Shown: in pieces, positions 11,343 through 45,464 of the stretch
Layout of the letters: each line of letters starts with the position of its first letter
Position numbering within the stretch: position 1 is the stretch's first letter
Source of the DNA: Klebsiella phage K64-1
Reading direction: 5' to 3' (one strand)
Sequence record: AB897757.1
Length of the DNA stretch: 64,000 bases
The notes under the pieces: model-generated
What the model saw: the letters and a program-made list of their open reading frames with translations, nothing else
What the model was told of the DNA's origin: nothing
Database searches by the model: none
Made by a program: the position numbers and the translations under genes

Positions 11343-12089
11343 ATGAGACATTATTTACAAGTAACAGTACCGGATGAAAAGGAATTATATATTGTTGGTG
11401 ATATTCATGGTAATGCAAGACTGTGGGATTTAACTAAAAAAGAATTTGGAATCACTGATAATGATGTAGTATTCAGCCTAGGTGATATTGTGGATCGTGG
11501 TAAAAATAATTCCAAATTACTATTTGAATTTCTTTTTCAAGACAATCGTTATATGATTAACGGTAATCACGAATCCATGCTCGTTGATGGATTGACTAAT
11601 CGTGAATGGTATCATTGTCATATGAGTAATGGTGGAGACAAACTATACGAAGAACTTGGTCATACTGGTGTAGAATTCTTTGCTCAGTACTTAAAAGATT
11701 TACCCATGATCATAGAAATACATTATCGTGGTATGAAAATTGGATTAGTACACGGTTGCTGTCCTTTACGTTATACAGACTGGAACGAATTTTTAACTGA
11801 TAGTTCAACGTTATCTCCAAAAATTGTTGAAGAATGCATTTGGTCCAGAAATGATTTTGACTATGCAAAACAAAACAACACTTATCATTCACCAAGAATT
11901 TCCAATATTGATTATGTCATTTCAGGACATTCCCCTGTATTTGATCCACTAATTTATGGAAACCGATGGTGGATTGATTCACAATTTAGTACTGGAGATT
12001 TGACTGTAGTACAACCAAACAGTGGAAAACTGAGATATTTTAGAAGAGAAAAGGATGCATATTCTTTTGATCGTAAACGTGGTTATTAA
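11343..12089 (+). CDS. Ser/Thr protein phosphatase (calcineurin-like metallophosphoesterase)
   Basis: GDIHG, GDIVDRG, GNHE motifs in canonical order. Confidence 0.7.
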   Translation: MRHYLQVTVPDEKELYIVGDIHGNARLWDLTKKEFGITDNDVVFSLGDIVDRGKNNSKLLFEFLFQDNRYMINGNHESMLVDGLTNREWYHCHMSNGGDKLYEELGHTGVEFFAQYLKDLPMIIEIHYRGMKIGLVHGCCPLRYTDWNEFLTDSSTLSPKIVEECIWSRNDFDYAKQNNTYHSPRISNIDYVISGHSPVFDPLIYGNRWWIDSQFSTGDLTVVQPNSGKLRYFRREKDAYSFDRKRGY

Positions 12090-14413: not shown

Positions 14414-15817
14414 ATGAGCATTCTGTCCATTCTAAATGAAATTAAAAATACCAGCAGTACTAATGCAAAAAAAGATATCCTAAGAGAAAATAAAAATAAT
14501 ATTTTACTACAAAAGGTAATCAAATACGCATTGGATCCTCTTAAAGTTTATGGATATAAAAAGCTTCCAGAACCAGTCTCAGACGGTTTCAAAATGAGCC
14601 TTAATGATGCACTGGACGCACTTGACCGTATTGCTAGTCGTGAATTTACTGGTCATACTGGCCGTGATTTTATTGCATCAGTCCTTGGTTCAGTTAATGA
14701 AGATGATGCTGAAGTACTACGTAAAGTATTGGTTAAAAATCTAGATAATGGTATTCAAGCAAAAATGGCAAATGCTGTTTTTGGTAATATCGTTCTCGAT
14801 GAAAGTTATATGCGTTGTGATCTACTTACTGCAAAAACGGCAAAAAAAATTAATTTTAAAAAGTTTGGTTATGCAGTTAGTGAATTAAAACATGATGGTC
14901 AATATCTTTCGCATATTATCAAAGATGGAAAAGTCACGAGTACCAGTCGCAACTCCAAAATATATGACTTTTATGGAACTAAAGATGATGATATGCTAAA
15001 ACTTGCTGAACTTATTCAAAGTTCCGACTCTCGTTTTAGTTCCGGTGTTGTTGTGATGGGTGAAGCATTAGTATACAGTACTGACATGATTAACCCAGAA
15101 CCACGAACTACTGGTAATGGTATTATTCAGAAATTTGGTAAAAATGGTGGTACTATTGACGAAGCCCACAGGGTATTCTTTAAACTATGGGATGTTGTTC
15201 CATATGATGCGTTCATTGAAGGTGAGTGGGATGTTATTAGAAAGGAACGCCGAGAACTATTAGAAAATACATTAAATGAATTAAATTCTAACTTTGTTAA
15301 AATGACTGAGTACAGAATCGTTCATTCATTTAAAGAAGCATTTGATTATAATACAGAAGTGATGACACAAGGTTCCGAAGGTACTATCATCAAGTCTGAA
15401 GACAATATTTTCAAATCACATACATCACCAACACAACTTAAAGTCAAACTCAAGATGGAAGTTGATTTGAAAATTGTTGGATTTGAAAAAGGTGTAGGAA
15501 AACGTAAAGGAACACTTGGTTCTATTATTCTACAAAGTGATGATGGTCAATTAGTGACCAACTGTGGGACTGGTTTCACTGATAAAATGCTTGACGAAAT
15601 CTGGAAAAACAGAGATAATCTTCTTTACAAAATCGTAGCAGTTGAAGCAAATGATATAGTACTTGATAAGCGTACAAAAGTTCCAAGTTTATTCTTACCA
15701 GTATTTGTGGAAATTCGTGAAGATAAGGATACTGCTGATACTTATAGTAGAATTCAAGAAATCAAAGAAAGTAGTATTGAAGTATTCAGTACTAAACTAT
15801 TAGAATCAATCAAATAA
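14414..15817 (+). CDS. ATP-dependent DNA ligase (T4 gp30 family)
   Basis: N-terminus ILNEIKNTSSTNAKKDILREN collinear with T4 ligase; adenylation motif KHDG; 467 aa. Confidence 0.85.
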   Translation: MSILSILNEIKNTSSTNAKKDILRENKNNILLQKVIKYALDPLKVYGYKKLPEPVSDGFKMSLNDALDALDRIASREFTGHTGRDFIASVLGSVNEDDAEVLRKVLVKNLDNGIQAKMANAVFGNIVLDESYMRCDLLTAKTAKKINFKKFGYAVSELKHDGQYLSHIIKDGKVTSTSRNSKIYDFYGTKDDDMLKLAELIQSSDSRFSSGVVVMGEALVYSTDMINPEPRTTGNGIIQKFGKNGGTIDEAHRVFFKLWDVVPYDAFIEGEWDVIRKERRELLENTLNELNSNFVKMTEYRIVHSFKEAFDYNTEVMTQGSEGTIIKSEDNIFKSHTSPTQLKVKLKMEVDLKIVGFEKGVGKRKGTLGSIILQSDDGQLVTNCGTGFTDKMLDEIWKNRDNLLYKIVAVEANDIVLDKRTKVPSLFLPVFVEIREDKDTADTYSRIQEIKESSIEVFSTKLLESIK

Positions 15818-16768: not shown

Positions 16769-17593
16769 ATGAAAGTAACAGGAAAGGGAAATCAGAAGGA
16801 TGACCTATTTCATATAGATAAGTTTTTAAATACTGGTAAATTTTTACCAGGAACAATATTTTCTCGTTCAACTACTAGACAAAAGAACAATAAAGGTGTA
16901 ATATCATATCCATATTGGAATTATAAATGCCCCAAATGTTCACATGATGAATTCGTTGAACATGGTTTATGTTCTGGTGTATTCGAAGGTGAATGTCAAA
17001 AACTAAAATTAGGAAAACGTAATTGTAGATGTGCTCCGACATATAGGTGGACACAAGAACAACGAGAATATCAAATACAAAAAGAAATCGATGAACGTGG
17101 TCTAGAAAATTATTTTATTGGATGGGTTGATCCTGAAGGATATAAAAATAATGGAAGTAAAATTATAATTGGATGTATAAATTCAGATGATGATGGTACC
17201 CAACATAAAAGTTATACTATAGCAATAAATGATTTTCTCCATGGACATAAAGGTTGTGCTAAATGTGCCGGTCAAACACAAAAACATGCATATATAAATG
17301 TTGTATATAATGAAAATAAACCAGTAGCTATAAAATTTGGAATTGCAAATGCACCACACATAAGGATTGAATTTCAAAATAGTAAAAATTTATATAAGAT
17401 GGTTCAAACGCACATTTACAAATTTTTCAGTACTGAACAATGTAAAGATGCTGAACGATATTGTAAATCAATTTATAAAAATGTTTTAACAAAAGAACAA
17501 CTATTTGATGGTTATACTGAAACCACACTATTGGAAAATATAGAAAATATTATTCAAATCTATGAAAAATATGGTGGAATCAGAACAAAATAA
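16769..17593 (+). CDS. Cys-rich hypothetical protein (CPKCSHDE, CRCAP, GCAKCAG)
   Basis: 274-aa ORF, several CxxC-like pairs; function unknown. Confidence 0.45.
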   Translation: MKVTGKGNQKDDLFHIDKFLNTGKFLPGTIFSRSTTRQKNNKGVISYPYWNYKCPKCSHDEFVEHGLCSGVFEGECQKLKLGKRNCRCAPTYRWTQEQREYQIQKEIDERGLENYFIGWVDPEGYKNNGSKIIIGCINSDDDGTQHKSYTIAINDFLHGHKGCAKCAGQTQKHAYINVVYNENKPVAIKFGIANAPHIRIEFQNSKNLYKMVQTHIYKFFSTEQCKDAERYCKSIYKNVLTKEQLFDGYTETTLLENIENIIQIYEKYGGIRTK

Positions 17594-17596: not shown

Positions 17597-17624
17597 TTGA
17601 CATTTTATTTGTTTATGTTACAAT
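17597..17624 (+). promoter_or_regulatory. sigma70-like promoter TTGACA-16-TACAAT
   Basis: ttgaca 17597-17602, tacaat 17619-17624; RBS gagga before ATG 17663. Confidence 0.45.
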
Positions 17625-17662
17625 GTCTCTATAAATTGATTAATAAACACGAGGAAATACAA

Positions 17663-18364
17663 ATGCTAGATCAATTCACATTCGGTGGTTACTCATCCGG
17701 TACACAAATTACTAACTACAGTGTTCCAATTGTGGTAGAAAAAGAAAATGGGCAAGAGCGTTCTTATGACTTGTCTTCTCGTATGATGAAAGAACGTATT
17801 ATTTTCATCGATTCTGATTTCAATCCACAAATGGCACACATTCTAAAAATGCAACTACTTTGGCTTGACTCACAGGATGATGCACCAATTGTATTGTATG
17901 TATCATCACCTGGTGGTTCTGTTCATGATGGTCTAGGTATTGCTGACGTTGCGAAATACTGTCGCTCTCCAATTCGTACTATTGTAATGGGATACGCCGC
18001 CAGTATGGGTGCGTTTACACAAAGTACAGTAGGTACTCCAGGTCATCGTTTTGCTGGTGAATCTGCTATGATTATGTGTCACCAAGTATCTTCAGGCACT
18101 AAAGGTCTAATTACTGATCAGAAGATTGCTCTAAAGCATACTGAACGCCTTAATGAACTACTGATGAAACGCATTGCTGAAAGTGTTGGTGTTTCATATG
18201 AACAACTACTTGAAGATGCTGACCGTGACTTGTGGCTAAATGCTGAAGAGTCACTAAATTATGGTACTAAAGGTTTCATTGATGGTATTATTCTTAGTGC
18301 TAAAAATGAAAAAGGTGAATTCCTAGTTCGTCGTCGCGGTGGCGTAGAAGAGTGGGTCAAATAA
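17663..18364 (+). CDS. ClpP-family serine protease
   Basis: SSPGGSV and GYAASMGA motifs, catalytic His region MIMCHQ; start moved from 17597 to 17663 (promoter lies inside the longer ORF). Confidence 0.7.
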   Translation: MLDQFTFGGYSSGTQITNYSVPIVVEKENGQERSYDLSSRMMKERIIFIDSDFNPQMAHILKMQLLWLDSQDDAPIVLYVSSPGGSVHDGLGIADVAKYCRSPIRTIVMGYAASMGAFTQSTVGTPGHRFAGESAMIMCHQVSSGTKGLITDQKIALKHTERLNELLMKRIAESVGVSYEQLLEDADRDLWLNAEESLNYGTKGFIDGIILSAKNEKGEFLVRRRGGVEEWVK

Positions 18365-21234: not shown

Positions 21235-21873
21235 TTATTCTACTGTGACTTCAACAGTATCAGTTTTGTTTCCATCATTGGTGGTTACAGTTATAGTTGC
21301 AGTACCAGCAGCTACATATGAAACTAGTCCAGTACTATCTACAGTACAAACACCCACTGCACTGGAAGACCATGTAACAGATTTATCGGTTGCATCCAAT
21401 GGTAGTACTGAAACGCTTAGTTGCTCGGTACCACCGACTGCACCAGTAAGAGTTTTTGGTGAAACAGTAACGCTTTCTACATGAACGACTGGTGGTTTTA
21501 CGTTAGTGCGTCTAAAGATAAATCCACCATTATCCAACTTGACTTTGTTGAGTTGGTAGAGTATACTGAATCCCTCGACACCGGTTTTTGGGTCAGATTC
21601 TTTGATACAAAAGGTATTTACTGCTAGTGAATCAGCAATATCTTCGTCAGCATCGGAATATTTTAGTGCTACCAGATTTGAATCGCGGTGAACTAGTCTA
21701 ATAAATGTATAAACAGTTCCATCTGTGGAAATCAAATCATACACATCAAAAGTTCTTTGTTTGTATACAAATAGGTCGCCAACATGAACTGTACCATTAA
21801 CATTTGCCGCAGTGACTTTCAATCCATCAACAACAAACGGATAATGGTTTTGTTTTGCGATAACACGTGCCAT
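21235..21873 (-). CDS. bacterial Ig-like (BIG2-type) domain protein; likely virion decoration or fibre protein
   Basis: C-terminal VTVSP..GGTEQL..V.P..AT...V.W.SS....TVD..G.V..VAAGTATITV pattern typical of Ig-like group 2; only minus-strand gene in the early block; TATAAAAG about 12 nt upstream. Confidence 0.55.
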   Translation of the reverse strand: MARVIAKQNHYPFVVDGLKVTAANVNGTVHVGDLFVYKQRTFDVYDLISTDGTVYTFIRLVHRDSNLVALKYSDADEDIADSLAVNTFCIKESDPKTGVEGFSILYQLNKVKLDNGGFIFRRTNVKPPVVHVESVTVSPKTLTGAVGGTEQLSVSVLPLDATDKSVTWSSSAVGVCTVDSTGLVSYVAAGTATITVTTNDGNKTDTVEVTVE

Positions 21874-21972: not shown

Positions 21973-22569
21973 ATGTTTATTGTACTAAAAGAATTTTTAT
22001 ATAATACATTAATTGCTTTTTCACTTATTTTCCCATCACATGATATTCAACAGAATGTAACTGTAAACGATAGTAACGTGTTAATTTTTAATACTAAAAT
22101 AAACGACGAATCAGTACAAAGAGCGGAAACATTATATAAGAAATATAAGTACAAAACCATTTCTATTACCTCACCTGGAGGTGATGTGAATTCTGGTTTT
22201 GAATTAGCAGTCTTTGCTTCTGACCATAATATTAAAGTTAATGTACCGAAGTACTGTGCAAGTGCATGTACAGTTATATTTTTTGCTGCTGATAAACAAA
22301 ACAGAGTTATGGATAAAGATGCTATTATTGCTATTCATAATGTTTCGGTTGTGGCTAATAATGATATTTCTGGTAATGAAACCATATCTATCAATACTGC
22401 CATGGATTTAATGAAAGATACATCAGAAATTGTAGCAGCTATGTATAGTTTATATGCATATGTTGGTATTCCAGGTGAAATCCTGATGAGAACAAGCACT
22501 ATGCACGGAGCTGATTCTTATCAAATAACAAAAAAACAACTCCAAATGTGGGGCATTTTAGAAAAATAA
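21973..22569 (+). CDS. secreted ClpP/SppA-like serine protease homolog
   Basis: N-terminal hydrophobic segment; TSPGGDVNSG and CASACT motifs resemble the ClpP/S49 fold. Confidence 0.4.
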   Translation: MFIVLKEFLYNTLIAFSLIFPSHDIQQNVTVNDSNVLIFNTKINDESVQRAETLYKKYKYKTISITSPGGDVNSGFELAVFASDHNIKVNVPKYCASACTVIFFAADKQNRVMDKDAIIAIHNVSVVANNDISGNETISINTAMDLMKDTSEIVAAMYSLYAYVGIPGEILMRTSTMHGADSYQITKKQLQMWGILEK

Positions 22570-22656: not shown

Positions 22657-23721
22657 ATGAAAGAAAAAGTTTATGTATATATTGGACGTTTCCAAATTCC
22701 ACATATTGGTCATGAAGAAGTCCTCAAACATGCGATCAAAATTGCAGATCGTGTTATCATTCAGGTCGGTTCAAGTGAACTGGCTCGTGATCCAAAAAAT
22801 CCATTCACGTTTGAAGAACGTAAGTCAGTACTAGAAGAAATTACAAAACGTGTAGCTCAAGATGAATGGAATAAAGGTCGAACTGTTAAAATCGATATTA
22901 TGCCATTACATGATTATGTATATGATAATAATGCATGGCTAAAAGAAGTACAGGATAATGTTAAAACATGTACTTCAAGTAATGATATTACTATTACCGG
23001 TTGTCGTAAAAATGGTGATACTAGTACTGAATATCTTAACTATTTTCCTCAATGGAAAAATGACTTCATTAACGAAGTACAAAGTAATGCAAAGGGTACT
23101 ATTAGTAGTACTGAACTACGCGAAGCTTTCTTTGTCTCTGGTAAAGTTCCAACTGAATTTGTTTCAAAAGAAACAACAGAATTTCTAGAAAATTTTGTCA
23201 GTACTAAACCGGATGTATTCGATAATCTTATTAAAGAATATGAATTCATTAATCGTTATATTGAACAAATGAAAGAAGCACTACCTTATGATATTCCATT
23301 TTTAACAGCAGATAACATCGTCGTCAGTTGTGGTCACGTTCTTCTTATTCGTAGAAGAACATATCCAGGAAAAGGATTATTAGCTATGCCGGGTGGATAT
23401 TTTCAATGTTGGGATGATAAAGACCAGATTGATACTGCAATTCGTGAATTAAAAGAAGAAACTAAAATCGATGTACCTGAAAAAGTGCTTCGTGGTAATA
23501 TTGTTAGTGCAACAGACTTTACTGACATGAATAGAAGTCTTCGCTGGCGAATTCTAACTAAAGCTGTTCATATTCAATTACCTGACGTCACTCTACCTAA
23601 AGTTAAAGGAAGTGATGATGCAGAAAAAGCTCAGTGGATTCCACTAAGCGATGTAGAAAAATATCGTGATCAGTTCTTTGAGGACCATTATTCTATTTTG
23701 GCTTCAGTACTGAAACTATAA
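22657..23721 (+). CDS. natV: bifunctional NMN adenylyltransferase / Nudix ADP-ribose pyrophosphatase (NatV/NadM-Nudix type)
   Basis: N-terminal GRFQIPHIGH nucleotidyltransferase motif; C-terminal Nudix box GGYFQ...IRELKEETKID. Confidence 0.8.
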   Translation: MKEKVYVYIGRFQIPHIGHEEVLKHAIKIADRVIIQVGSSELARDPKNPFTFEERKSVLEEITKRVAQDEWNKGRTVKIDIMPLHDYVYDNNAWLKEVQDNVKTCTSSNDITITGCRKNGDTSTEYLNYFPQWKNDFINEVQSNAKGTISSTELREAFFVSGKVPTEFVSKETTEFLENFVSTKPDVFDNLIKEYEFINRYIEQMKEALPYDIPFLTADNIVVSCGHVLLIRRRTYPGKGLLAMPGGYFQCWDDKDQIDTAIRELKEETKIDVPEKVLRGNIVSATDFTDMNRSLRWRILTKAVHIQLPDVTLPKVKGSDDAEKAQWIPLSDVEKYRDQFFEDHYSILASVLKL

Positions 23722-23796
23722 AGAATTATTACACAGAGTAATAATAAATCAGAGAACGTAGTAGTTCTCTAACTTAAACTAAGGGAGTCTTAGAAA

Positions 23797-25269
23797 ATGA
23801 AAAACGTAAATCCAAATGTAAACTTTATTTTAAACTGCGACAGCTATAAGATTCAACACAGAAAAATGCTCAAAAAGCATGTTGATGGTTATTACAGTAC
23901 TATTGTACCTCGTAAAAGCTCTCCACATAGCAACCATGTAGTTGTGGCTGGTTTGCAATACACAATTAATACCTATATCAATATTCAGATTACCAAAGAA
24001 GATGTTGATGAAGCTGAAATTGAAATTCGTGAACAAGGTTCACGTTTTGATAGAACTATTTGGGATAAAATCGTCAATGAGTTTGGTGGTAAAGTTCCAG
24101 TAAAAATTAGTGCTATTAAAGAAGGTACAGTTGTTCCAGTTCAATCAGTAGTTTGTGTTGTTGAAGCTAAAGATGAGTTTGCATTTTTGGCTAGTTATAT
24201 TGAAACTTGTATTCAACGTGGTGTATGGTATAGCAGTACTGTAGCATCTGAATGTCGTGCAATGAAAAAAATTCTTGCTGATGTAATGCAACGTCATGCT
24301 GGTCATAAGAATGTAGATTATCATTTCCACAACTTTGGAGATCGTAGTGCAACTTGTTTTGAACATGCATATGTAGCTGGTATGGCACATGCAATTATGT
24401 TCAATGGTTCGGATAGTTTAACTTCAAATCGTTATATTAAAGCTCACTATAATACTACCAAAGCGTATCTGAGTTCAGTTGACGCTACTGAACATAGCGT
24501 TATGTGCAGTAATAGTGATGCTGAACATCGCAATGATTATGGTGCAGCAGTAATGGCGGTAGATCATTGGGAAGAACAAGTTACAATGTGGGAAGAAGAT
24601 GGATTAGGTGTACCAGTAACTTCATGTGTTATTGATACTTATAATGATTATCGCTTTGTCCGTGACTTTATCGGTACTAAATTAAAAGACCGTATTGTTG
24701 AAATTGGCAAACGAGGTGGTCGCTTTGTTCTTCGTCCTGATTCACGAATTCCTAAAGAAATTTGTATTGATGTAATCGAAATTCTAATGGAAAAGTTTGG
24801 TTATACTATTAACGAACATGGTTACAAAGTACTACCACCATATATTGGAGTAATTCAAGGTGATGGTGTTAATTTCGATAGTATTCATGAAATTCTAGAT
24901 ATTCTTGATGAAAAGAAATTATCCCTTGAAAACATTGTATTTGGTTGTGGTACCAAATTGGTTAACCCTGAACGTGGTCGTGATCTTTATAGTTGGTCAA
25001 TGAAAGGTACTGCACAACATGTCGAAGATGAACGTGAATGGCAAGACCTATTCAAAGATCCAGCAGGTGAACCAGGCAAACGTTCACATAAAGGGCGTGT
25101 AGTAACCTGGAAATGTAAAGTATCTGGTAAGATTTTTGTTGATCGTGATGATCTTGATAAAATTAATCATTTCATTGAAAATCTACTTGTACCAATGTAT
25201 GACTGCGGTAAAATTATGAATTTCAGTACTTTTGATGAAGTTCGTGAGCGTGCTAACGCAGGTATCTAA
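23797..25269 (+). CDS. nadV: nicotinamide phosphoribosyltransferase (Nampt/NadV)
   Basis: 490-aa NAPRTase-family protein; size, position next to NMNAT and overall similarity to T4-like phage NadV. Confidence 0.75.
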   Translation: MKNVNPNVNFILNCDSYKIQHRKMLKKHVDGYYSTIVPRKSSPHSNHVVVAGLQYTINTYINIQITKEDVDEAEIEIREQGSRFDRTIWDKIVNEFGGKVPVKISAIKEGTVVPVQSVVCVVEAKDEFAFLASYIETCIQRGVWYSSTVASECRAMKKILADVMQRHAGHKNVDYHFHNFGDRSATCFEHAYVAGMAHAIMFNGSDSLTSNRYIKAHYNTTKAYLSSVDATEHSVMCSNSDAEHRNDYGAAVMAVDHWEEQVTMWEEDGLGVPVTSCVIDTYNDYRFVRDFIGTKLKDRIVEIGKRGGRFVLRPDSRIPKEICIDVIEILMEKFGYTINEHGYKVLPPYIGVIQGDGVNFDSIHEILDILDEKKLSLENIVFGCGTKLVNPERGRDLYSWSMKGTAQHVEDEREWQDLFKDPAGEPGKRSHKGRVVTWKCKVSGKIFVDRDDLDKINHFIENLLVPMYDCGKIMNFSTFDEVRERANAGI

Positions 25270-25277
25270 TATATTTT

Positions 25278-25307
25278 GGAGAGTCATTATGGCTCTCCAT
25301 TCTTTTT
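25278..25307 (+). terminator. terminator hairpin after nadV (ggagag/ctctcc plus T5)
   Basis: 6-bp stem, 9-nt loop, T-run 25303-25307. Confidence 0.45.
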
Positions 25308-25332
25308 AATTAAAGTAATAAAGGTATATAAT

Positions 25333-25509
25333 GTGCTTATTGGTTTTAAAATAGTTATTATCTTCTTTATATGGTTTATTACATATCAAATAATTGAAGA
25401 AATCAGTACTAAATTCTCTTCAAATAATTTCTTAGTAGACGTTTGTTTATTATCCATTGCGGTACTGGGATTTTTGATCATACCGGTTATATTTTCATAT
25501 TTTATATGA
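25333..25509 (+). CDS. small membrane protein (start uncertain, GTG 25333 assumed)
   Basis: ORF 25276..25509, but the first codons lie inside the nadV terminator hairpin. Confidence 0.25.
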   Translation: MLIGFKIVIIFFIWFITYQIIEEISTKFSSNNFLVDVCLLSIAVLGFLIIPVIFSYFI

Positions 25510-25515
25510 AAAATG

Positions 25516-25544
25516 TTGACATTTTTTTCTTCATAAGATATAGT
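25516..25544 (+). promoter_or_regulatory. sigma70-like promoter TTGACA-17-TATAGT
   Basis: ttgaca 25516-25521, tatagt 25539-25544. Confidence 0.5.
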
Positions 25545-25577
25545 ATAGATATTAACAATTAATAACGGATATCAAAA

Positions 25578-25844
25578 ATGTTCCAACATCTTTTGGATTT
25601 TTTCTGTACTGTAAACATTGAAAAACAAGCTAAGTTCATTATTGTAGAACTGGTCTGGTTTTACTTAGGTGGCCTGGTAATTACACTGTGTGCATTTTTA
25701 CATAGTGATATTAATCTTGGTATTTCCTATGCAAAAAGTGAGAATAAACCATCATTACTACTCAAGTTTATTAGATGTTTATTGTACTTAGCGTATATCT
25801 TATATATTGTTGGATTTTTTGGTGTATATTATGTAATTCATTAG
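25578..25844 (+). CDS. small membrane protein
   Basis: hydrophobic 88-aa ORF. Confidence 0.35.
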   Translation: MFQHLLDFFCTVNIEKQAKFIIVELVWFYLGGLVITLCAFLHSDINLGISYAKSENKPSLLLKFIRCLLYLAYILYIVGFFGVYYVIH

Positions 25845-25854
25845 GAATTAATCG

Positions 25855-26592
25855 ATGATTAGTACTAAATTCATTAAAAAAGCTGGTGATAAAAGATTAC
25901 TAATCATTTCTGGAAATGGATTGTCAATGGATAGTGGTTTTGACTTATATGACATTCCTGATAATTTTCAGATAAATGATGTATGTAATATTGCCAGTTT
26001 AGGTACAAAATATCACGTAGTTCATTCTTATTATAATACTCTTAGAGTTAAATTAAAAGATATTGAACCAAACGAAATGCATTACTATATTAAATCATTA
26101 CAAGATGAGTATGGTGATAACTTTTTACACATGACCAGTAATGTAGATGATTTATATACAAGAATTGGTGGCACTGAATTAAAATTACATGGTAATATTA
26201 AAGAGGTTATAGAAAACTACACCGCTGATGGTTCTGAAATAGAAATAAAAGAATTAGGTTATGAACCATATATTCCATGTAGTGGTATTTTTTCTAAACC
26301 AGGTGTTACATTAATTGGTGAGTTCCATAGTTATTTTTATGGATATAAAATCCCAATTTATGAAGAACGAAATGAAATACTAAAATCATTAAATGAAAAT
26401 GATACTGTAGTAGTAATTGGAAGTTCTGATTCAGTACTGAAATGGAGCCATTTAATAAATGAGAAATGTTACACAGTACTAATCAATATAAGAAAAAATG
26501 AAAACGATCATCGTTTCAATGAACGAATTTATAAATCTTGTTCCAAATCTGTATTAGATTTATCTGGAATAATTTCAAAAAGGATGGTATAG
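25855..26592 (+). CDS. Sir2-like (sirtuin fold) protein lacking the Zn ribbon
   Basis: LIISGNGLSMDSGF (compare GAGIS.ESGIP), NVDDLYTRIGGTELKLHGN (compare N.D.LH.RAG...ELHG), VVVIGSSDSV (compare IGTSL.V); no CxxC pairs. Confidence 0.55.
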   Translation: MISTKFIKKAGDKRLLIISGNGLSMDSGFDLYDIPDNFQINDVCNIASLGTKYHVVHSYYNTLRVKLKDIEPNEMHYYIKSLQDEYGDNFLHMTSNVDDLYTRIGGTELKLHGNIKEVIENYTADGSEIEIKELGYEPYIPCSGIFSKPGVTLIGEFHSYFYGYKIPIYEERNEILKSLNENDTVVVIGSSDSVLKWSHLINEKCYTVLINIRKNENDHRFNERIYKSCSKSVLDLSGIISKRMV

Positions 26593-27146
26593 TGGAAAAA
26601 ATTGATTTCGGTACAAGAAGTACCAGAGCCGATTTTGCTTTTTGTTGGATTTTTGCCCGAGATTGTACTCCATACTCTGGATATGATGATCAACTTGGAA
26701 TTGATAAAGTAAATTTAGTACTAGCACAATTACGTTTTGATGGTTGCATTGGGGCGTGTGGTGGTATGGTGGAAAGTGATGATAATTCATTAGAAGAAGC
26801 TGTACAGCGTGAAGTACTGGAAGAAATTGGTTATACTGTTGATTTAACACATTTAAAACCACTTCTAAGCTTGCGTTTACCATCAGGCAGCCATTGCCAT
26901 AGCTATAGTTATGAAGTTGATTACAATGAATTACAAAGCATTAGAGATGGTGCTTATAGAGGAATACATTTCAATCCAGAATGTGCTGGTGTGAATCTTT
27001 TACATATTTCAAGATACACAAAAGGTTATGGAAACGAATGTGGATATAATGTATTATTAGAACAACACTGGAGTGGTACATCAAAAGAAGAATTTATGTA
27101 CCTTGTAGAGACAGAAAATCTATTAATTAGTTATTTGAAGGAATGA
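26538..27146 (+). CDS. Nudix hydrolase (true start may be GTG 26592 overlapping the upstream TAG)
   Basis: Nudix box GGMVESDDNSLEEAVQREVLEEIGY; ORF-track start at 26538 is TTG. Confidence 0.6.
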   Translation: MFQICIRFIWNNFKKDGIVEKIDFGTRSTRADFAFCWIFARDCTPYSGYDDQLGIDKVNLVLAQLRFDGCIGACGGMVESDDNSLEEAVQREVLEEIGYTVDLTHLKPLLSLRLPSGSHCHSYSYEVDYNELQSIRDGAYRGIHFNPECAGVNLLHISRYTKGYGNECGYNVLLEQHWSGTSKEEFMYLVETENLLISYLKE

Positions 27147-27478
27147 TAATGGGATACCAGTTATTTTTAGATGATATTCGTTACCCATCAAAATATTATA
27201 GTACTGAAATGGTACTATGTAGATCTTATGATGAAGCTGTCAAATATGTAGAAGAACATGGAATTCCAGAATTTATCAGTTTTGACCATGACCTTGGAGA
27301 TACTTCTGATAATGAAAAAACTGGTTATTCATTTGCTAAATTTTTGATTGATTATATGATTGATAATGGCATCAGTAATGAATTCAAATATAATATTCAT
27401 AGCTCAAATCCAGTAGGTGCAGATAATATCGATTCTTATCTAAAAGCTGGTTTTAAATATCTAAGAGAAAATATGTAA
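27143..27478 (+). CDS. hypothetical protein (LFLDDIRYP ... ISFDHDLGD motif)
   Basis: ORF track; ATGA coupling. Confidence 0.4.
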   Translation: MIMGYQLFLDDIRYPSKYYSTEMVLCRSYDEAVKYVEEHGIPEFISFDHDLGDTSDNEKTGYSFAKFLIDYMIDNGISNEFKYNIHSSNPVGADNIDSYLKAGFKYLRENM

Positions 27479-27795
27479 TGAAGATTGGTAATCATATTTT
27501 TGCATGTTTTATTAGTATATGTATCTGTTCGGTTGTTGCTGGATTGTGGTATAATTCAATGAGGTACGAAAAACACAATATTAGATATAATTCAGTTAAA
27601 GTTGTTGGTATTGGTCAATGTTCTAATAAAAGTTCGAGTACCGAGTGTTCTTTTTGGTACGAAGATGGAAATTCTACCCAATTTGCAATTTCAGATAATC
27701 CAGTTTCAATTGGTCAAATTGTTTATCAAATGTGCTGGACAGAAAAGGCTCGTGGTGATAGATGTTATGTAAATTACCAAACGAGTAAGCAGTAA
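27478..27795 (+). CDS. small membrane or secreted protein
   Basis: N-terminal hydrophobic helix, several Cys. Confidence 0.4.
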   Translation: MKIGNHIFACFISICICSVVAGLWYNSMRYEKHNIRYNSVKVVGIGQCSNKSSSTECSFWYEDGNSTQFAISDNPVSIGQIVYQMCWTEKARGDRCYVNYQTSKQ

Positions 27796-27872
27796 AAAAG
27801 TTGTATTTTAGCAGTTCTAAATACATATGAGAACAACATAATATTCTCCCCAACTAAGATAAGGAATATCTT

Positions 27873-29312
27873 ATGAAAAAATATACTATTGACACTAACG
27901 TAGTACTTTCTGATCCAAATGCAATCACTGCGTTTGATGGTACATCTGTTATTCTTCCATTTAAAGTACTAGAAGAACTAGATTCTATTAAAAGTCGCAA
28001 TGTTGACGTATCTCGTGATGCACGTTTTGCAATCCGAAATATTGATGCAATTCTAGCTGATGCAACTTATGAAGAGATTAGAAATACTGGTGTTGATATT
28101 TCAAAAGTACATACGAATATGAGTGCTTCCAGTAAATTATTTGTAATTACCGATGAAGAAGCAGAAGCTTTAATTCGTACACAAGATAAAGAAGAAAAAT
28201 TAGTCACTCTTCTAAAAAGTACAGTTCCTGATGATAAAATCATTTTAGTAGCACTAGCAACTGATTCAGTACTAGTTACAAAAGATATCAATATGCGTCT
28301 AAAAGCACTATCTTATGGTGTTGAGGTTCAAGATTATCGTCATGATGTAGTACTAGAAGATAGTGATCTTATTCATGTCGGTCAACATCATCTTGACATT
28401 GATTTTTGGGAAATGTTTAAAGATATTCCTGATGCAGAAATTAAATCCAATCAAATTGGTAGAAAATTGTATCACTATATCAGTACTGAACTATTAAAAG
28501 ATTCGTTACCAACAAATATGTATATTGGTGATTATTTGTATGATAATTCTGATGTATTGTTTGTATATGATGGTATTGTTGAGCTTGATGATTCAGAAGG
28601 TAATGCAATTGAAGGTGAGTTTTTTGTATTTCAAGATGTAGGACAATCGGTTGCTTTACGTGCTAAAGTTTGGGATATTAAATCAAAAAATATCCAACAA
28701 TCATTAGCAATTAATAGTATTCTCGATCCTGACGTACATCTTACTGTACTTCTTGGTTCTGCTGGTACTGGTAAAACACTAATTACAATTGCAAGTGCAC
28801 TTGAATTAGTACTAGAGAAGAAAAAATATTCTCGTATTATTTTCTCAAAAACTCAAGATTCACAGTTTGAAGATATTGGTTTCCTACCAGGATCAGAAAG
28901 TGAAAAAGTAATTCCTTTCTGTGGTGCAGCAATTGATGCATTAGAGTTTTTACATCGTGATGACCGCGATCCACAAGGTAGTATTGAAGAAATTATGAAA
29001 CGTAATGTTATTCAATTTAAAGCATTGAACTTCGTTCGTGGTCGTAGTTTCACTGATACAATTCTTGTTATCGACGAATTCCAAAATATTTCACCCGCAC
29101 AAGCGAAGACAATCTTGACACGTGCTGGACAAAACTGTAAAGTAATCATTATGGGAAACCTATCACAAATTGATAATAAATTTATTAGTGCAGTGAATAG
29201 TGGTTTAACATATGTTACTGAAAAATTTAAAGATTGGTCCGGTTGTCGTATCATCGAGTTAGAAGGTGTTGTGCGTTCACCATTAGCCGAATTTGCTGAG
29301 AAAAATATGTAA
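27873..29312 (+). CDS. phoH: PhoH-like ATPase with N-terminal PIN domain
   Basis: PIN acidic residues (IDTNVVLSD ... EELD); Walker A LLGSAGTGKT; Walker B ILVIDEFQN. Confidence 0.8.
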   Translation: MKKYTIDTNVVLSDPNAITAFDGTSVILPFKVLEELDSIKSRNVDVSRDARFAIRNIDAILADATYEEIRNTGVDISKVHTNMSASSKLFVITDEEAEALIRTQDKEEKLVTLLKSTVPDDKIILVALATDSVLVTKDINMRLKALSYGVEVQDYRHDVVLEDSDLIHVGQHHLDIDFWEMFKDIPDAEIKSNQIGRKLYHYISTELLKDSLPTNMYIGDYLYDNSDVLFVYDGIVELDDSEGNAIEGEFFVFQDVGQSVALRAKVWDIKSKNIQQSLAINSILDPDVHLTVLLGSAGTGKTLITIASALELVLEKKKYSRIIFSKTQDSQFEDIGFLPGSESEKVIPFCGAAIDALEFLHRDDRDPQGSIEEIMKRNVIQFKALNFVRGRSFTDTILVIDEFQNISPAQAKTILTRAGQNCKVIIMGNLSQIDNKFISAVNSGLTYVTEKFKDWSGCRIIELEGVVRSPLAEFAEKNM

Positions 29313-29317
29313 TAATA

Positions 29318-29349
29318 TTTTCGGTACTGAACAACACTCAGTACCGAAA
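29318..29349 (+). terminator. hairpin (tttcggtactga/tcagtaccgaaa) after phoH, weak U-tract
   Basis: 12-bp perfect stem, 7-nt loop; arms are TTCGGTACTGA variants of the genome-wide motif. Confidence 0.4.
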
Positions 29350-29372: not shown

Positions 29373-29401
29373 TTGACATATCAATCGTTGTATCCTATAA
29401 T
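29373..29401 (+). promoter_or_regulatory. consensus sigma70-like promoter TTGACA-17-TATAAT
   Basis: ttgaca 29373-29378, tataat 29396-29401; RBS aaagagga before ATG 29449. Confidence 0.6.
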
Positions 29402-32527: not shown

Positions 32528-33730
32528 ATGAAACTTTGTAAGCATTGCCAGAAACCAAAATTCAAACATCAACGTGAAACACTGAATTGTCCAAGTCCAA
32601 CTCGTTCATTGGCTGCGAATTTTAATAGTACAACTGTATATGATGAATATGAATCCGATCCAGTACATTATGCTATTGCACAAGTACAATTGAAAGCTGA
32701 TATTGCTGAAATTACTGCTGGTCTTGATGAACTTCTTGCTAAAGGTGATATTAACGAACAATCATATAAAATGAATTTAGCAAATGCAACTGCCAATCTT
32801 ACTCGTATTGCTGAAAATAGTAAGCGACCAGAAATTACAGAATCTAATTCAGTACTGTATGTTTCTTTTAACGATGTGGTGTATTTTTATGATGCACAAT
32901 GGGAAGGAAATGCAGTACTAGAAGGTGAAAAAGCAGTAGAAGATTTATATTTTTCTAATAAATTCAAAGAATATTATGATGCTGGTATTGTACCAGTATT
33001 AGAAGTGCTAGATAATGAAAGCACTGAAATGATTAAAGTAATTTATAATGAAGAACGTGCTGAATTTATTTCTGATATTAGTCGTGATGAACATTTGAAA
33101 GAAAGAGATACAAAACAAGAAGAAGTATCTTTATCTGATTTGAATAATGATGATTTTGTACTTCCATTGCATGATAAACAATGGGTACTAAATACTATTC
33201 GAAAAAATTCTGACGATGATTGTGATGTTGAAGAACTTGAATGTGCATTGAAAAGCTGTGATGGATCTGTTGTTCTTGGTAAACCAGATACAGAAAACGA
33301 TGGAACTTATCTAATGCTTGGTATGAAAACCAACGATGGTTTCCTTGAAAATGATTACTGTCTTCTTGATAGCATTTTGCTTAAAGAATGGAGTGTACTT
33401 GAAAATTCAGGGTTGATTGAAATTGGTACTTTTGAAAGCCACATTGACATTGATGAAAGCAAAAATAAAGGCATTACTACTTTTATGTCTGAAGTAATTG
33501 CACGTTCATTATTCAGTACTGAAGCATTGGATATCAAAAGTACTTCTGATTGTAAAGAATTCTTGAAATCAGAATACAATGTACAAAAAGCAAAACGCAT
33601 CAAGAAAGAAAAATGGGGTAAAATTGAGTACCGAATCTTTGAAGATGATAATGGTGAACAGTATACTATTGTCACTTACTGTGATAAGTTGATTTCACAT
33701 TATCCATTTGCTTACAATGAGGATTATTAA
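32528..33730 (+). CDS. hypothetical acidic protein (400 aa), N-terminal CxxC...C
   Basis: ORF track. Confidence 0.45.
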   Translation: MKLCKHCQKPKFKHQRETLNCPSPTRSLAANFNSTTVYDEYESDPVHYAIAQVQLKADIAEITAGLDELLAKGDINEQSYKMNLANATANLTRIAENSKRPEITESNSVLYVSFNDVVYFYDAQWEGNAVLEGEKAVEDLYFSNKFKEYYDAGIVPVLEVLDNESTEMIKVIYNEERAEFISDISRDEHLKERDTKQEEVSLSDLNNDDFVLPLHDKQWVLNTIRKNSDDDCDVEELECALKSCDGSVVLGKPDTENDGTYLMLGMKTNDGFLENDYCLLDSILLKEWSVLENSGLIEIGTFESHIDIDESKNKGITTFMSEVIARSLFSTEALDIKSTSDCKEFLKSEYNVQKAKRIKKEKWGKIEYRIFEDDNGEQYTIVTYCDKLISHYPFAYNEDY

Positions 33731-38990: not shown

Positions 38991-41201
38991 TTAGCTATTG
39001 AATGATATTACATAATCAAAATCAGCGTGGAAAGAAAAATCAAAAGTTCCTGCTGGATGTGAAAATGAGGTTCCTGCACTATCTTTTAAAATTGTTAATA
39101 CATCAGTACTTGGAGTAACTAATGGTATTAATGTCACACCAGTTGCCTGTGGAGTAAACACACTACCTTTTGTATATCCAGTTTGAATTGAGCTTGAAAT
39201 AAATGGTAAACCAGATATTCTAAATGGTCCAGCCGTATTAATAGTCAAATTACTATTTCTCAATCTTATATGTATTCTGATTATATCACCGAATCTGTGA
39301 TATATACCAGTTGCTTCCGTTAGAGTTATATAACTTCCTGCAATTTGAAGTACAGGAGTAAATGTTCCATAATCATATTTAAATTGTGCATTTGATGAAG
39401 TGAATACCAACGGTTGAACAAATGCATATGAACTATTGAAAACGTATTTGCTTACCCAACTATTTTTAAACTCCTGAAGGGTTAACATTGAATAACTACT
39501 AGTATCATCTGATCTTCTATATTGTCTATGTATTTGACCACCAGTAACAATTGGGTTTATTTCATTTGAGACTGATTGTTGAACATGTCCAGATCTAGTA
39601 ACATCCATACAACCAATATTACCTCTACATACCATTGCTGGGAAGAAATTTTGTGAAGGATCCCAAGGGTCTACGTTATCTACATTAAAACGATTACCGG
39701 TTGTATTACCGGCAGCATAATTGATTATACCAACTCTTTCTAAAATTACATTTCCTATTTTACTATTACCTACCCATGAACCTGATTGTGATGTATGATA
39801 AAATGGAGTTCTCGGAGACCACATTATTTTGGCTTCTAAAATATTACAATTTAATATTTCACGACCATATCTTGAATATACAGTTTTGGCACGACCTGTT
39901 ATTCCTTTATATTCACCCAACGGCCATACACCAGTTTGTTTATTATTTGATAATCTACCACCATTTGCGGTTGTTATGGAATTAGCAGTTTTAAAAAAAT
40001 ATGTATTAAAAAAATTATCCAGTGAAGAATATGCAGTATGCGTGAAATTAAGACTTGTATCACCATAATAGTGATATTTTTCAGTGAAACTAGAATCATT
40101 CCATCCTGCTCTATAAATGTCTGATGCAGGATATGGTGGTAAATAAGTTGATGCATAAGCATAGTTTCTTGTTAGCCATTGCCCACCAAATACATCACCT
40201 GCTATATTATACCATAATTTAATAAATCCTCTTTCAACTGCGTCTTCACCTTGAAATATCCCGGTTATTCCACAACTTGAAATTTGTAAATTATCCTCAG
40301 TTGAAAATGCACTAATTCCTTCACATAATCTACCAATCATAAATCCTGATATATTTAAATCATGCATATGATATCTTACATAACCATCTTTTCCAGAATC
40401 ACCAGAAATAAAAACACCAATTGTTCCATTTAAATCATATGGCCCACTAGTTTTGCTCCAATTACCACGAATACCAGTAGTTTGCATATTTGTTCCAATT
40501 ATAACAGAATCGTTGTATAGTCTAATTGCTGCCCTCATTGTATAAATTGGTTCTGGATCTATATTTTGATCAGTTCCGGCAGTTATCCATCCCGGATAAA
40601 CAGTACCGTCATCTCTTGGTAATTCATAAGTTTGTGGAAATGTTATACATGGATATCTTTGTGACAATACAACTGGTAAATTATTAGTTTTTCCATAATC
40701 AATTGCCGCTTGTAAATAAGGAACTGCATCTAATGTAGTTCCATGTATATATTTTTCATTATTAATGACAAACATTTCTGGAGTTATAAATTTTAATGCA
40801 TCTTTTAATACTCCACCAGTATCAAGTGTTATATTATTTGAAATATTATCCAAATTTTTTTGTACTGATAACCCGTTACTAGTTCCAATTTTACCAGCAG
40901 CATCATCATTAGAAAGAATAATTTGTTCTAAAATATTAATTTGATATGATGATATATTAGTTACTATAATAATAGTTGATTCATCTACAATATTCCAAGA
41001 ATCAACCATCCCTGTTTCATTCCCATTAAGTTTCCAAATTGTTTCAGTACTGGAATCATATACAAATTTTAAACCAGCAATATCTAGTCCATCTTCTAAA
41101 TATTTTACTTCCTCAATTTTTGACCCAGTAATTCTTGCTATGCTTTGTATATTAGTTTCTTTAGAAACTGAACCTTTCGGTTGTATTAAACTATTTGTCA
41201 T
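38991..41201 (-). CDS. tailspike/tail fibre protein, anchor family A (N-terminal LIQPKGSVSKETN)
   Basis: conserved N-terminal 55 aa shared with four other minus-strand genes; G/N/T-rich beta-helix-like body; TATAAATA late promoter upstream. Confidence 0.75.
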   Translation of the reverse strand: MTNSLIQPKGSVSKETNIQSIARITGSKIEEVKYLEDGLDIAGLKFVYDSSTETIWKLNGNETGMVDSWNIVDESTIIIVTNISSYQINILEQIILSNDDAAGKIGTSNGLSVQKNLDNISNNITLDTGGVLKDALKFITPEMFVINNEKYIHGTTLDAVPYLQAAIDYGKTNNLPVVLSQRYPCITFPQTYELPRDDGTVYPGWITAGTDQNIDPEPIYTMRAAIRLYNDSVIIGTNMQTTGIRGNWSKTSGPYDLNGTIGVFISGDSGKDGYVRYHMHDLNISGFMIGRLCEGISAFSTEDNLQISSCGITGIFQGEDAVERGFIKLWYNIAGDVFGGQWLTRNYAYASTYLPPYPASDIYRAGWNDSSFTEKYHYYGDTSLNFTHTAYSSLDNFFNTYFFKTANSITTANGGRLSNNKQTGVWPLGEYKGITGRAKTVYSRYGREILNCNILEAKIMWSPRTPFYHTSQSGSWVGNSKIGNVILERVGIINYAAGNTTGNRFNVDNVDPWDPSQNFFPAMVCRGNIGCMDVTRSGHVQQSVSNEINPIVTGGQIHRQYRRSDDTSSYSMLTLQEFKNSWVSKYVFNSSYAFVQPLVFTSSNAQFKYDYGTFTPVLQIAGSYITLTEATGIYHRFGDIIRIHIRLRNSNLTINTAGPFRISGLPFISSSIQTGYTKGSVFTPQATGVTLIPLVTPSTDVLTILKDSAGTSFSHPAGTFDFSFHADFDYVISFNS

Positions 41202-41227
41202 CTACTTAACCTCATATGTAATTGCAA

Positions 41228-41235
41228 TATTTATA
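41228..41235 (-). promoter_or_regulatory. T4-type late promoter TATAAATA (minus strand)
   Basis: tatttata on plus equals TATAAATA on minus, about 26 nt upstream of ATG 41201 with RBS gaggt. Confidence 0.55.
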
Positions 41236-41252
41236 ATTCATCAAAACCTTAA

Positions 41253-43208: not shown

Positions 43209-43239
43209 TATATAATTTCTCCAAATATAATCTTAATAA

Positions 43240-43247
43240 TATTTATA
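43240..43247 (-). promoter_or_regulatory. late promoter TATAAATA (minus strand)
   Basis: inside a conserved 38-bp promoter/UTR cassette also present at 45394-45431. Confidence 0.55.
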
Positions 43248-43249
43248 AA

Positions 43250-43278
43250 GAAAAAGCCCCCAGAGAGGGGGCTTTATT
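43250..43278. terminator. terminator hairpin (agccccc/gggggct)
   Basis: 7-bp GC stem flanked by A/T runs. Confidence 0.55.
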
Positions 43279-43284
43279 GTTAGT

Positions 43285-45393: not shown

Positions 45394-45421
45394 TATAATT
45401 CTCCAAATATAATTATAATAA

Positions 45422-45429: not shown

Positions 45430-45432
45430 AAT

Positions 45433-45459: not shown

Positions 45460-45464
45460 TTTAA

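Follow-up and report, generated by a model that had tools for sequence, protein, structure and literature searches.

The DNA analyzed here, a stretch of 64,000 nucleotides (nt) from Klebsiella phage K64-1 (record AB897757.1; "the window" below denotes this whole stretch), contains two adjacent gene blocks between positions 22657 and 29349. The first is a pair of enzymes for the salvage of nicotinamide adenine dinucleotide (NAD+), an NAD+ reconstitution pathway of type 2 (NARP2); the second, judged from its flanking signals, probably is a distinct early operon (25516–29349) built around a sirtuin without a zinc ribbon. In the initial annotation, positions 22657–27146 were considered a salvage module extended by a Sir2-like protein and a Nudix hydrolase. 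The four genes placed there, NatV, NadV, Sir2 and Nudix, were all recovered at their coordinates as open reading frames (ORFs) with Pfam and PHROG matches, but the cREC gene, a membrane protein of 105 amino acids (aa), PIN-PhoH, the terminator and the promoter had been missed. The features of the locus are as follows.

22657–23721, plus strand: NatV/NadM-type bifunctional nicotinamide mononucleotide (NMN) adenylyltransferase-Nudix protein, NARP2 enzyme 2 (Pfam, PHROG, NCBIfam)
23797–25269, plus strand: NadV/Nampt nicotinamide phosphoribosyltransferase, NARP2 enzyme 1 (Pfam, PHROG)
25277–25307, plus strand: intrinsic-terminator-like hairpin (25277–25299) and U-run (stem search, RNA fold)
25516–25544, plus strand: sigma70-type promoter, TTGACA-N17-TATAGT (11/12 consensus matches)
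25578–25844, plus strand: membrane protein with two transmembrane segments, 88 aa, first gene past the promoter (ORF; two-transmembrane-domain annotation in phage Muenster)
25855–26592, plus strand: zinc-less sirtuin of a phage-specific clade, 245 aa (PF02146, phrog_2162, AlphaFold2 fold)
26592–27146, plus strand: NUDT16/X29-like Nudix hydrolase (PF22327, phrog_9999, PDB matches)
27143–27478, plus strand: cREC (cyclic-phosphate-processing receiver-like) domain protein, 111 aa (PF20274, phrog_1479)
27478–27795, plus strand: membrane protein, 105 aa, with an N-terminal transmembrane helix and a Cys-containing tail (phrog_14661, E 1.9e-38)
27873–29312, plus strand: PIN-PhoH (PhoH2-like) RNA helicase/endoRNase, last gene of the conserved neighborhood (Pfam, NCBIfam)
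29319–29349, called on the minus strand: terminator-like hairpin after PIN-PhoH (sequence)

Between 22657 and 27800, the window is 96–98% identical at the nucleotide level to the Klebsiella jumbo phages RCIP0023, RaK2, KP13-7 and Muenster (Alcyoneusvirus). The records of these phages list a cytidyltransferase/NMN adenylyltransferase (NMNAT)-Nudix protein, a nicotinamide phosphoribosyltransferase, a Sir2-like protein, a Nudix hydrolase (nudE_1) and a PhoH-like protein. Thus, the conserved gene block had been annotated before, and it has also been published as a predicted system of hypothetical function. The view that it is not a described system had to be abandoned in the light of Iyer, Burroughs, Anantharaman & Aravind (2022; Viruses 14:1977, PMC9503650, section 3.7.3), Skliros et al. 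(2016; PMC5107563) and the RaK2 GenBank annotation. An Rfam search of the region from 20 to 31 kb of the window returned no RNA element, and tRNA genes are absent from the 64-kb window.

Two probable transcription units at the locus

NatV matches the Pfam domains CTP_transf_like (E 2.6e-11) and NUDIX (E 1.9e-10), phrog_395 (E 2.3e-82) and the NCBIfam model NF003786 for bifunctional NMNAT/Nudix proteins (E 5e-84), and is 92% identical to RaK2 ORF498. NadV contains the Pfam domains NAMPT_N and NAPRTase, matches phrog_448 (E 6e-143) and is 99% identical to RaK2 ORF500. Both genes that define NARP2, a Nampt homologue and an Nmnat homologue, are therefore present in the window, and the profile matches bear out the earlier assignment of the two as a NARP2-type salvage pair. 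NARP2 of phage KVP40 rebuilds NAD+ and defeats Thoeris and DSR2, as shown for the KVP40 genes only (Osterman et al., 2024). The substrates of NARP2 are nicotinamide, phosphoribosyl pyrophosphate (PRPP) and ATP, whereas ADP-ribose is the substrate of NARP1 (Osterman et al., 2024), so that of the two precursors originally named for the window pair, nicotinamide and ADP-ribose, only nicotinamide applies. A homing-endonuclease gene of about 1 kb (HNH/EDxHD, DUF723; L001 5084–6109, L002 5084–6091, L033 4755–5660) sits between NatV and NadV in RaK2, in Muenster and in L033, a relative represented by a contig of the Logan metagenomes; it is missing from the intergenic region of the window (23722–23796) and likewise from RCIP0023. 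The homing endonuclease inside NARP2 is a presence/absence polymorphism of a mobile gene.

A hairpin (25277–25299) starting 8 nt past the NadV stop codon has a 10-bp stem with 5 GC pairs and is followed by TTCTTTTT; its predicted RNA fold has a free energy of −14.9 kcal/mol, with a z of −4.85 compared with shuffled sequences. The NARP2 transcript probably ends here. Both hexamers of the promoter at 25516–25544 are preserved in RaK2, in Muenster and in the divergent L033, in which the spacer and the flanks have diverged. This promoter is probably the start of the sirtuin operon, and its type suggests early expression dependent on the host RNA polymerase. Because the terminator and the conserved promoter separate it from NadV, the sirtuin block appears to be an early transcription unit of its own, extending from about 25516 to the hairpin at 29319–29349. 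Directly past that hairpin, at 29373–29401, there is a perfect sigma70 consensus promoter (12/12, TTGACA-N17-TATAAT), which, going by its sequence, marks the next early transcription unit.

The two blocks also differ in their divergence from L033. NatV-NadV and PIN-PhoH (22700–25400 and 27800–29300) are 90–99% identical at the nucleotide level, with synonymous divergences (dS) of 0.13–0.32, whereas the identity is 58–85% in the region from the 88-aa to the 105-aa membrane gene (25400–27700), where the dS values for Sir2, Nudix, cREC and the 105-aa membrane protein reach 0.6–1.7. The divergence of this middle region is close to that of the flanking genome. In view of this mosaic, NARP2 and the sirtuin block have different recent histories, which suggests that the segments with NARP2 and PhoH were exchanged recently or went through sweeps. 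All genes of the locus are under purifying selection, with ratios of nonsynonymous to synonymous divergence (dN/dS) against L033 between 0.11 and 0.31 (Nudix, 0.15; cREC, 0.11).

Such independence of the two blocks is also apparent in other phages. The Asteriusviruses 121Q and slurp01 have the order Sir2-Nudix-cREC-membrane-PIN-PhoH, with NatV and NadV not at the locus; no Asteriusvirus NadV was among the NadV matches down to 31% identity, which is not exhaustive proof of its absence. In the KVP40-like phage ValKK3, the sirtuin has neither NadV nor NatV within 8 kb. Terminator, promoter, Asteriusvirus arrangement, the unlinked Sir2 of the KVP40 type and the differing divergence from L033 all speak against the sirtuin block being an extension of the salvage module, as had been supposed. 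A single NARP2-sirtuin operon was rejected on the same grounds, apart from the KVP40-type Sir2.

The sirtuin and its translationally coupled partners

The product of 25855–26592 scores 44.2 bits against the Pfam family SIR2 (PF02146; E 2.7e-11, cut-off 24) and matches phrog_2162 (E 2.5e-63). Its AlphaFold2 model, built with 34 homologues, is confident (pLDDT 90.4, pTM 0.88), and the top 50 Foldseek matches of the model are all sirtuins, the best being Escherichia coli CobB (TM-score 0.75–0.83, E 1e-16), followed in the PDB by Sir2Af1 and SIRT5. A sequence comparison with the PDB likewise puts CobB first (E 5e-14). The Sir2 fold assigned from the motifs thus stands. Among NCBIfam models, only those of the CobB type match, and the best score of 63 bits does not reach the equivalog cut-off of 318. 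By tblastn, the sirtuin clade was found in 967 phage records, comprising T5-like, rV5-like, Mydo/Hena-like, KVP40-like and jumbo phages. No cellular homologues were found when 185,579 species genomes were scanned using the alignment of the clade, and at the sensitivity of that scan the clade looks phage-restricted.

Sir2 domains act as NADase effectors in ThsA, DSR and SIR2-HerA, and the initial annotation had considered that the phage protein might be an NADase held in check. However, the PADLOC models of defense SIR2 proteins gave no match at E ≤ 0.01, Pfam SIR2_2 gave none at E ≤ 1, and no defense SIR2 was among the top 50 structural matches, while the nearest sequences and structures are deacylases of the CobB/SIRT5 type. 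Furthermore, there is no sensor or antitoxin-like partner, and the block sits in a conserved, apparently early operon of hundreds of virulent phages. A toxin restrained by its neighbors is thus highly improbable. The defense-type reading was rejected on the PADLOC result and on the fold search, which returned deacylase sirtuins only.

The sirtuin motifs SGNGLS, TSNVDD and LHG (with His112) are present. Neither H112 nor N96 varies in the two alignments used (A1 and A2), and D98, likewise invariant in A1, is conserved in at least 90% of the sequences of A2; the KVP40-like ValKK3 has NVSD at this site. Instead of the Gln of the (Q)NID motif, the window protein has Ser, and the clade as a whole has Ser, Thr or Ala. 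Because there is a single Cys and no CxxC pair between HG and KPGV, the window sirtuin has no zinc ribbon, in agreement with the first description of the protein as one that keeps the Sir2 motifs and lacks the zinc-ribbon cysteines. CxxC pairs are present in CobB and absent from every phage-clade sirtuin aligned. The peptide loop VYP of CobB reads VLK in the window, and the loop is not conserved in the clade. The missing zinc ribbon, which shapes the peptide cleft, and the change from VYP to VLK are compatible with a non-peptide substrate. Compared with CobB, the jumbo-phage sirtuins have an 8-residue insertion following the GE motif. Y60 and R64 are invariant and align at or beside a Tyr and an Arg of CobB, the pair that binds anionic acyl groups in class III sirtuins.

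Nudix enzymes are known to hydrolyze O-acetyl-ADP-ribose, which would suit a CobB-like deacylase as the central enzyme of the block. Such an enzyme would deacylate proteins of the host or the phage, one proposal being that it activates acetyl-CoA synthetase (Skliros et al., 2016), the Nudix hydrolase would destroy O-acyl-ADP-ribose or ADP-ribose, and NadV would remove and recycle the inhibitory nicotinamide. The sequence and fold matches to CobB, Sir2Af1 and SIRT5 and the exclusively CobB-type NCBIfam matches agree with this explanation, as do the retained catalytic His and the conserved class III Tyr/Arg pair, and the hypothesis of a deacylase has been published for KVP40-like phages together with expression data (PMC5107563). 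However, the zinc ribbon is absent clade-wide, the peptide-binding VYP loop is not conserved, the score remains far below the CobB equivalog cut-off, and the host has its own CobB. Moreover, the conserved partners of the sirtuin described below, namely cREC, a 2H phosphoesterase, RNA ligase, a HAD "Swiss-army-knife" phosphatase and PIN-PhoH, have no role in a deacylation cycle. We consider it unlikely that the block serves protein deacylation.

The cofactor-binding loop differs from that of other members of the clade. In the jumbo-phage consensus it is canonical, GAGLSAESGISTFR..ALW, with F32, R33 and W35 at least 90% conserved, whereas in the window it reads SGNGLSMDSGFDLYD, followed by a deletion of about 6 residues; FR is changed to YD, and GNGLS is retained. 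The change was seen only in the RaK2 lineage, and the nearest relative of the window is altered likewise. Because Phe-Arg and Leu-Trp of this loop are lost, the RaK2-lineage protein could be a catalytically impaired pseudo-enzyme or binding protein, in which case only Nudix and cREC would be working enzymes. The substitution of three residues so strongly conserved in the clade (Y, D and a deletion for F32, R33 and W35, in the window as in its nearest relative) and the loss of the 2H partner in the same lineage would fit such a decay. Yet the dN/dS of the sirtuin against L033 (0.17 over 245 codons) is comparable to that of the Nudix gene, the catalytic His, Asn, Asp and the GSS motifs are intact, and the structural model is confident (pLDDT 90). 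The sirtuin is constrained by purifying selection although its cofactor loop is degenerate, and a loss of catalysis seems quite improbable.

The sirtuin gene and the three genes that follow it, those for Nudix, cREC and the 105-aa membrane protein, are joined by consecutive overlaps of 1–4 nt. The TAG stop codon of Sir2 (26590–26592) overlaps the GTG start codon of Nudix (26592–26594), with an AAGGA Shine-Dalgarno motif upstream, which confirms the translational coupling first noticed for this pair. The cREC start overlaps the Nudix stop (ATGA), and a TAATG stop-start overlap follows between cREC and the 105-aa membrane gene. One continuous ORF encodes both Nudix and cREC in 10 of the 18 related loci, whereas the window has two overlapping genes for them. 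The Nudix protein, originally regarded as stand-alone, is thus one half of a Nudix-cREC unit.

The Nudix protein matches the Nudt16-like family PF22327 (E 7.8e-16; 58.9 bits, cut-off 27; residues 41–178) and phrog_9999 (E 1.3e-87), and in the PDB it comes closest to human NUDT16 and Xenopus X29 (29% identity). The Nudix box is intact (GG...E...REx2EE, with G57, G58, E68, R73, E74, E77 and E78 invariant), and the sequence places the protein in the NUDT16/X29-like rather than in an ADPRase-like type. Human NUDT16 strips off ADP-ribose placed on RNA terminal phosphates by TRPT1, a KptA homologue, or by PARP10, and also cleaves protein-conjugated ADP-ribose (PMC6582358). The cREC protein matches PF20274 (cREC_REC; E 1.9e-24; 86.5 bits, cut-off 27), the receiver-type acidic residues D10, D11, D48 and D50 as well as H86 and N89 are invariant, and no histidine-kinase partner is found among the neighbor genes. 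PIN-PhoH, which starts 77 nt past the 105-aa membrane gene, contains PIN_4 (E 1.1e-21) and PhoH (E 7.3e-44) domains and matches the NCBIfam model of the RNA 5′-3′ helicase PhoH2 with E 1.1e-47, below its cut-off. The 88-aa membrane protein at the start of the block has no Pfam or PHROG family and is weakly conserved among other jumbo phages.

The conserved neighborhood and its possible function

For the comparison across phages, jumbo-phage loci were drawn from public records and IMG/VR. The order Sir2-Nudix-cREC-membrane-PIN-PhoH is retained in 15 of 15 complete loci, with Sir2 identities of 33–62%, and in every one of these the 105-aa membrane gene follows cREC. A longer order, dCMP deaminase ... 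NatV ... NadV ... (1–4 kb) ... 2H-Sir2-Nudix-cREC-membrane-PIN-PhoH, was observed in 14 of 16 jumbo loci, among them those of Serratia phage BF (L020), Cronobacter phage GAP32, Pectobacterium phage CBB, Yersinia phage fHe-Yen9-04 and Erwinia phage Kaldavass. Outside the jumbo phages, the gene order Rnl1-type RNA ligase, cREC and Sir2 of the same clade occurs in rV5-like phages, and in a T5-like phage the sirtuin adjoins a HAD "Swiss-army-knife" RNA-repair phosphatase. These three contexts match the neighborhood types of Iyer et al. (2022). A gene at 33149–33727 of the window is 38% identical to a 223-aa protein that in other jumbo phages lies between NadV and the sirtuin (L015 6634–7305), which indicates gene shuffling around the module.

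The 2H phosphoesterase gene directly upstream of Sir2 was detected in 14 loci by tblastn with the L015 protein. The same query finds none in the 64-kb window, the RaK2 locus or the 121Q locus, and a 2H or Acb1 gene elsewhere in the window was ruled out on this negative result. The 2H proteins of the relatives (L015 9534–9980 and 13 equivalents) match the Pfam family Acb1 (anti-CBASS protein 1; E 1.2e-15). This membership favors an explanation by scavenging of immune signals, according to which Nudix and cREC, joined in relatives by the Acb1-like 2H, would as a unit degrade immune messengers derived from NAD+ or from nucleotides and toxic products, among them glyco-cyclic ADP-ribose (gcADPR) isomers, ADP-ribose-1′′-phosphate (ADPR-1′′P), ADP-ribose-1′′,2′′-cyclic phosphate (ADPr>P) and cyclic oligonucleotides. 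The sirtuin would make, modify or compete for such molecules, and the block would complement NARP2 against Thoeris, CBASS or RES-type defenses. That the block adjoins NARP2, a proven counter-defense, is in line with this idea, and so is its early-type promoter. Accessory ADPr-processing enzymes that extend NARP1 operons provide a precedent, and Iyer et al. hold that the Nudix, Macro, NADAR and cREC proteins of phages are directed chiefly at soluble derivatives of ADPr. However, the sirtuin, the most constant member across the three phage lineages, would be left without a clear job, the window has no Acb1/2H gene, the block appears separable from NARP2 in both transcription and evolution, and these families are not mentioned in the anti-defense literature searched. 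Altogether, we rate signal scavenging as rather unlikely.

The gene identities, the translational coupling, the operon boundaries, the synteny, the gene fusion and the selection described above are observations on this locus and its relatives. The reading of them that we favor, with a probability of about 60%, is that two activities are encoded in the block, a sirtuin-type enzyme that consumes NAD+ for ADP-ribosyl transfer and a Nudix-cREC unit dedicated to dismantling its ADP-ribose-containing product, while the adjacent NARP2 pair refills the NAD+ pool and uses up nicotinamide. In a specific version of this reading, phosphorylated RNA ends would be the acceptor, in analogy to KptA. We favor this version because of the recurrent RNA-repair partners and the NUDT16-type Nudix, but hold it only tentatively, with the odds somewhat against it. 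The operon structure, the conserved gene order and the Nudix-cREC fusion also speak for it, as do the retained catalytic His, Asn and Asp, the missing zinc ribbon with the changed peptide loop, the invariant Y60 and R64 and the purifying selection.

For both the catalytic steps and the RNA substrate, we infer the following sequence of events, after Iyer et al. (2022). First, the sirtuin would transfer the ADP-ribosyl group onto a phosphate of damaged RNA, as KptA/Tpt1 does on an RNA 2′-phosphate, releasing nicotinamide and an ADP-ribose derivative, for example ADPr>P. Second, the (cyclic) phosphate would be opened or removed by cREC. Third, the Nudix enzyme would cut the ADP-ribose pyrophosphate to yield AMP and phosphoribose, and, fourth, PIN-PhoH2 would contribute an RNA-handling activity. 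The neighboring NARP2 pair, as a separate module, would re-use the freed nicotinamide and refill the NAD+ pool; therefore, the adjacency of the two blocks would be metabolically sensible, but not obligatory.

Several points weigh against this RNA-directed version. The closest sequences and structures of the sirtuin are those of bona fide protein deacylases, CobB and SIRT5. The RaK2 lineage is devoid of the 2H gene, and because the Phe-Arg of the NAD+ loop is lost, the chemistry of its sirtuin may differ from that of its own clade. A complete T4-type Pnkp and Rnl1 kit is encoded 18–21 kb upstream, and that pathway requires no 2′-phosphotransferase. The Acb1-family 2H of the relatives points to the degradation of immune signals rather than to RNA healing. 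To our knowledge, PIN nucleases are metal-dependent and do not produce cyclic-phosphate ends. The mechanism leaves the membrane protein unexplained, and the literature searched contains no experimental work on a phage sirtuin, on cREC or on a NUDT16-like phage Nudix.

A further step would be to regard the zinc-less phage clade as the first sirtuins that act on nucleic acid, spending NAD+ to ADP-ribosylate cleaved RNA and take off a phosphate, with AMP and phosphoribose re-entering PRPP and NadV/NatV so that the two modules close an NAD+ cycle during infection; we consider this extension doubtful. The idea of a nucleic-acid sirtuin has been published as a prediction, and its demonstration would be new, as would be a RaK2 lineage that operates without 2H and with a rebuilt loop. 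NAD+ is central to the conflict of phages with bacteria, in which NARP2 is a proven counter-defense, and apart from the sirtuin no obvious NAD+ consumer encoded by the phage was found in the window, the phage DNA ligase being ATP-dependent. Members of the clade occur in hundreds of virulent phages (relatives of T5, rV5, RaK2 and KVP40) that serve therapy and research. Whether RNA repair, protein deacylation or immune interference, the answer would change the view of host take-over and could reveal new sirtuin chemistry.

Other genes of the window include, on the same strand and 10–21 kb upstream, the T4-type RNA repair kit, consisting of an Rnl1 RNA ligase (4710–5855) and a Pnkp kinase-phosphatase (7043–7987), as well as a calcineurin-like phosphoesterase (11343–12089) and an ATP-dependent DNA ligase (14414–15817). 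A 274-aa protein with two CapR homology domains (16769–17593; PF21817, E 1e-13) is annotated as "endonuclease" in RaK2. Two genes encode ClpP-like proteases (17597–18364 and 21973–22569), one of them canonical (CLP_protease, E 2.5e-45); the divergent one (phrog_26024, weak ClpP/SDH match) lies directly upstream of NatV and is syntenic in Asteriusvirus. Amid the plus-strand early genes, a lone gene for an Ig-like (Big_2) domain is located on the minus strand (21235–21873; "major tail protein" in RaK2), and its counterpart in Muenster is flanked by a bidirectional terminator. The region from about 40000 to 56000 has a negative GC skew and corresponds to the minus-strand tail fiber/tailspike cluster annotated in RaK2.

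Comparison with known systems

The neighborhood of sirtuin, 2H, Nudix, cREC and PIN was described for jumbo phages by Iyer et al. (2022; PMC9503650) as type 1, with Serratia phage BF (AQW88637.1) as the example, along with rV5/Mydo and T5-like variants. These authors predicted that the sirtuins remove RNA 2′-phosphates with NAD+, like KptA/Tpt1, and proposed that the cyclic phosphate, or ADPr>P as the product, is further processed by the partner enzymes. The cREC domain had previously been defined from the NAD+/ADPr enzymes to which it is linked (Iyer et al., 2021; PMC7824862). For KVP40-type phages, Skliros et al. (2016; PMC5107563) described a Sir2/CobB protein without a zinc site, tied it to nicotinamide recycling by NAMPT and proposed a role as a deacetylase. 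The NARP3 and aRES papers deal with other enzymes, namely PnuC/NadR and Macro phosphatases. In the literature examined, we did not find the loss of 2H in the RaK2 lineage, the Acb1-family membership of the 2H in relatives or the separation of Nudix and cREC as opposed to their fusion in 10 of 18 loci. Nor did we find there the degenerate FR loop in spite of a dN/dS of 0.17, the NUDT16/X29-like type of the Nudix, the invariance of Y60/R64 or the T4-type repair kit of the window.

NadV and NatV of the window have the same two-enzyme architecture as NARP2 of Vibrio phage KVP40 (Nampt and Nmnat). NARP2 is defined by these two genes, and the sirtuin block falls outside this definition. With the defense-type SIR2 NADases (ThsA, DSR1/2, SIR2-HerA), the window sirtuin shares the Sir2 superfamily and, presumably, NAD+ as a substrate. 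In contrast to them, it belongs to PF02146 and not to SIR2_2, has neither a PADLOC match nor a sensor domain, and is structurally closest to deacylases. The similarity to CobB and the class III sirtuins (SIRT5, Sir2Af1) extends over the Rossmann fold, the GxG, N-D and His-Gly motifs and the Tyr/Arg pair on the same helix, whereas the zinc-ribbon cysteines are missing, another residue takes the place of Gln in QNID, YD stands where FR would be expected, and the score is under the equivalog cut-off.

Among the partners, the window Nudix has the LRxDGxxGxxGGxV...REx2EE box in common with human NUDT16 and Xenopus X29, but is phage-encoded, carries an N-terminal extension of about 40 residues and is fused to cREC in relatives. 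The likeness to KptA/Tpt1 would consist in the proposed reaction, in which ADP-ribose from NAD+ is transferred to a phosphate of RNA and nicotinamide and ADPr>P are set free, and both KptA/Tpt1 and the phage sirtuins associate with 2H, RNA ligase and Nudix partners. However, the folds are unrelated, KptA being an ADP-ribosyltransferase (ART) and the window protein a sirtuin, so that this is an analogy rather than a homology.

From the type 1 neighborhood of Iyer et al. (2022), the window differs by the absence of 2H, the unfused Nudix and cREC genes and the degenerate cofactor loop of the sirtuin; the conserved membrane protein of the block is not mentioned by these authors. The region 25855–29312 contains a sirtuin of the phage clade together with its linked genes for Nudix, cREC and a PIN endoRNase; the sirtuin clade, the Nudix, the cREC and PIN-PhoH are the same, in the same order and in the same phage group, and in Serratia phage BF, as in the window, NatV and NadV lie upstream of the sirtuin.

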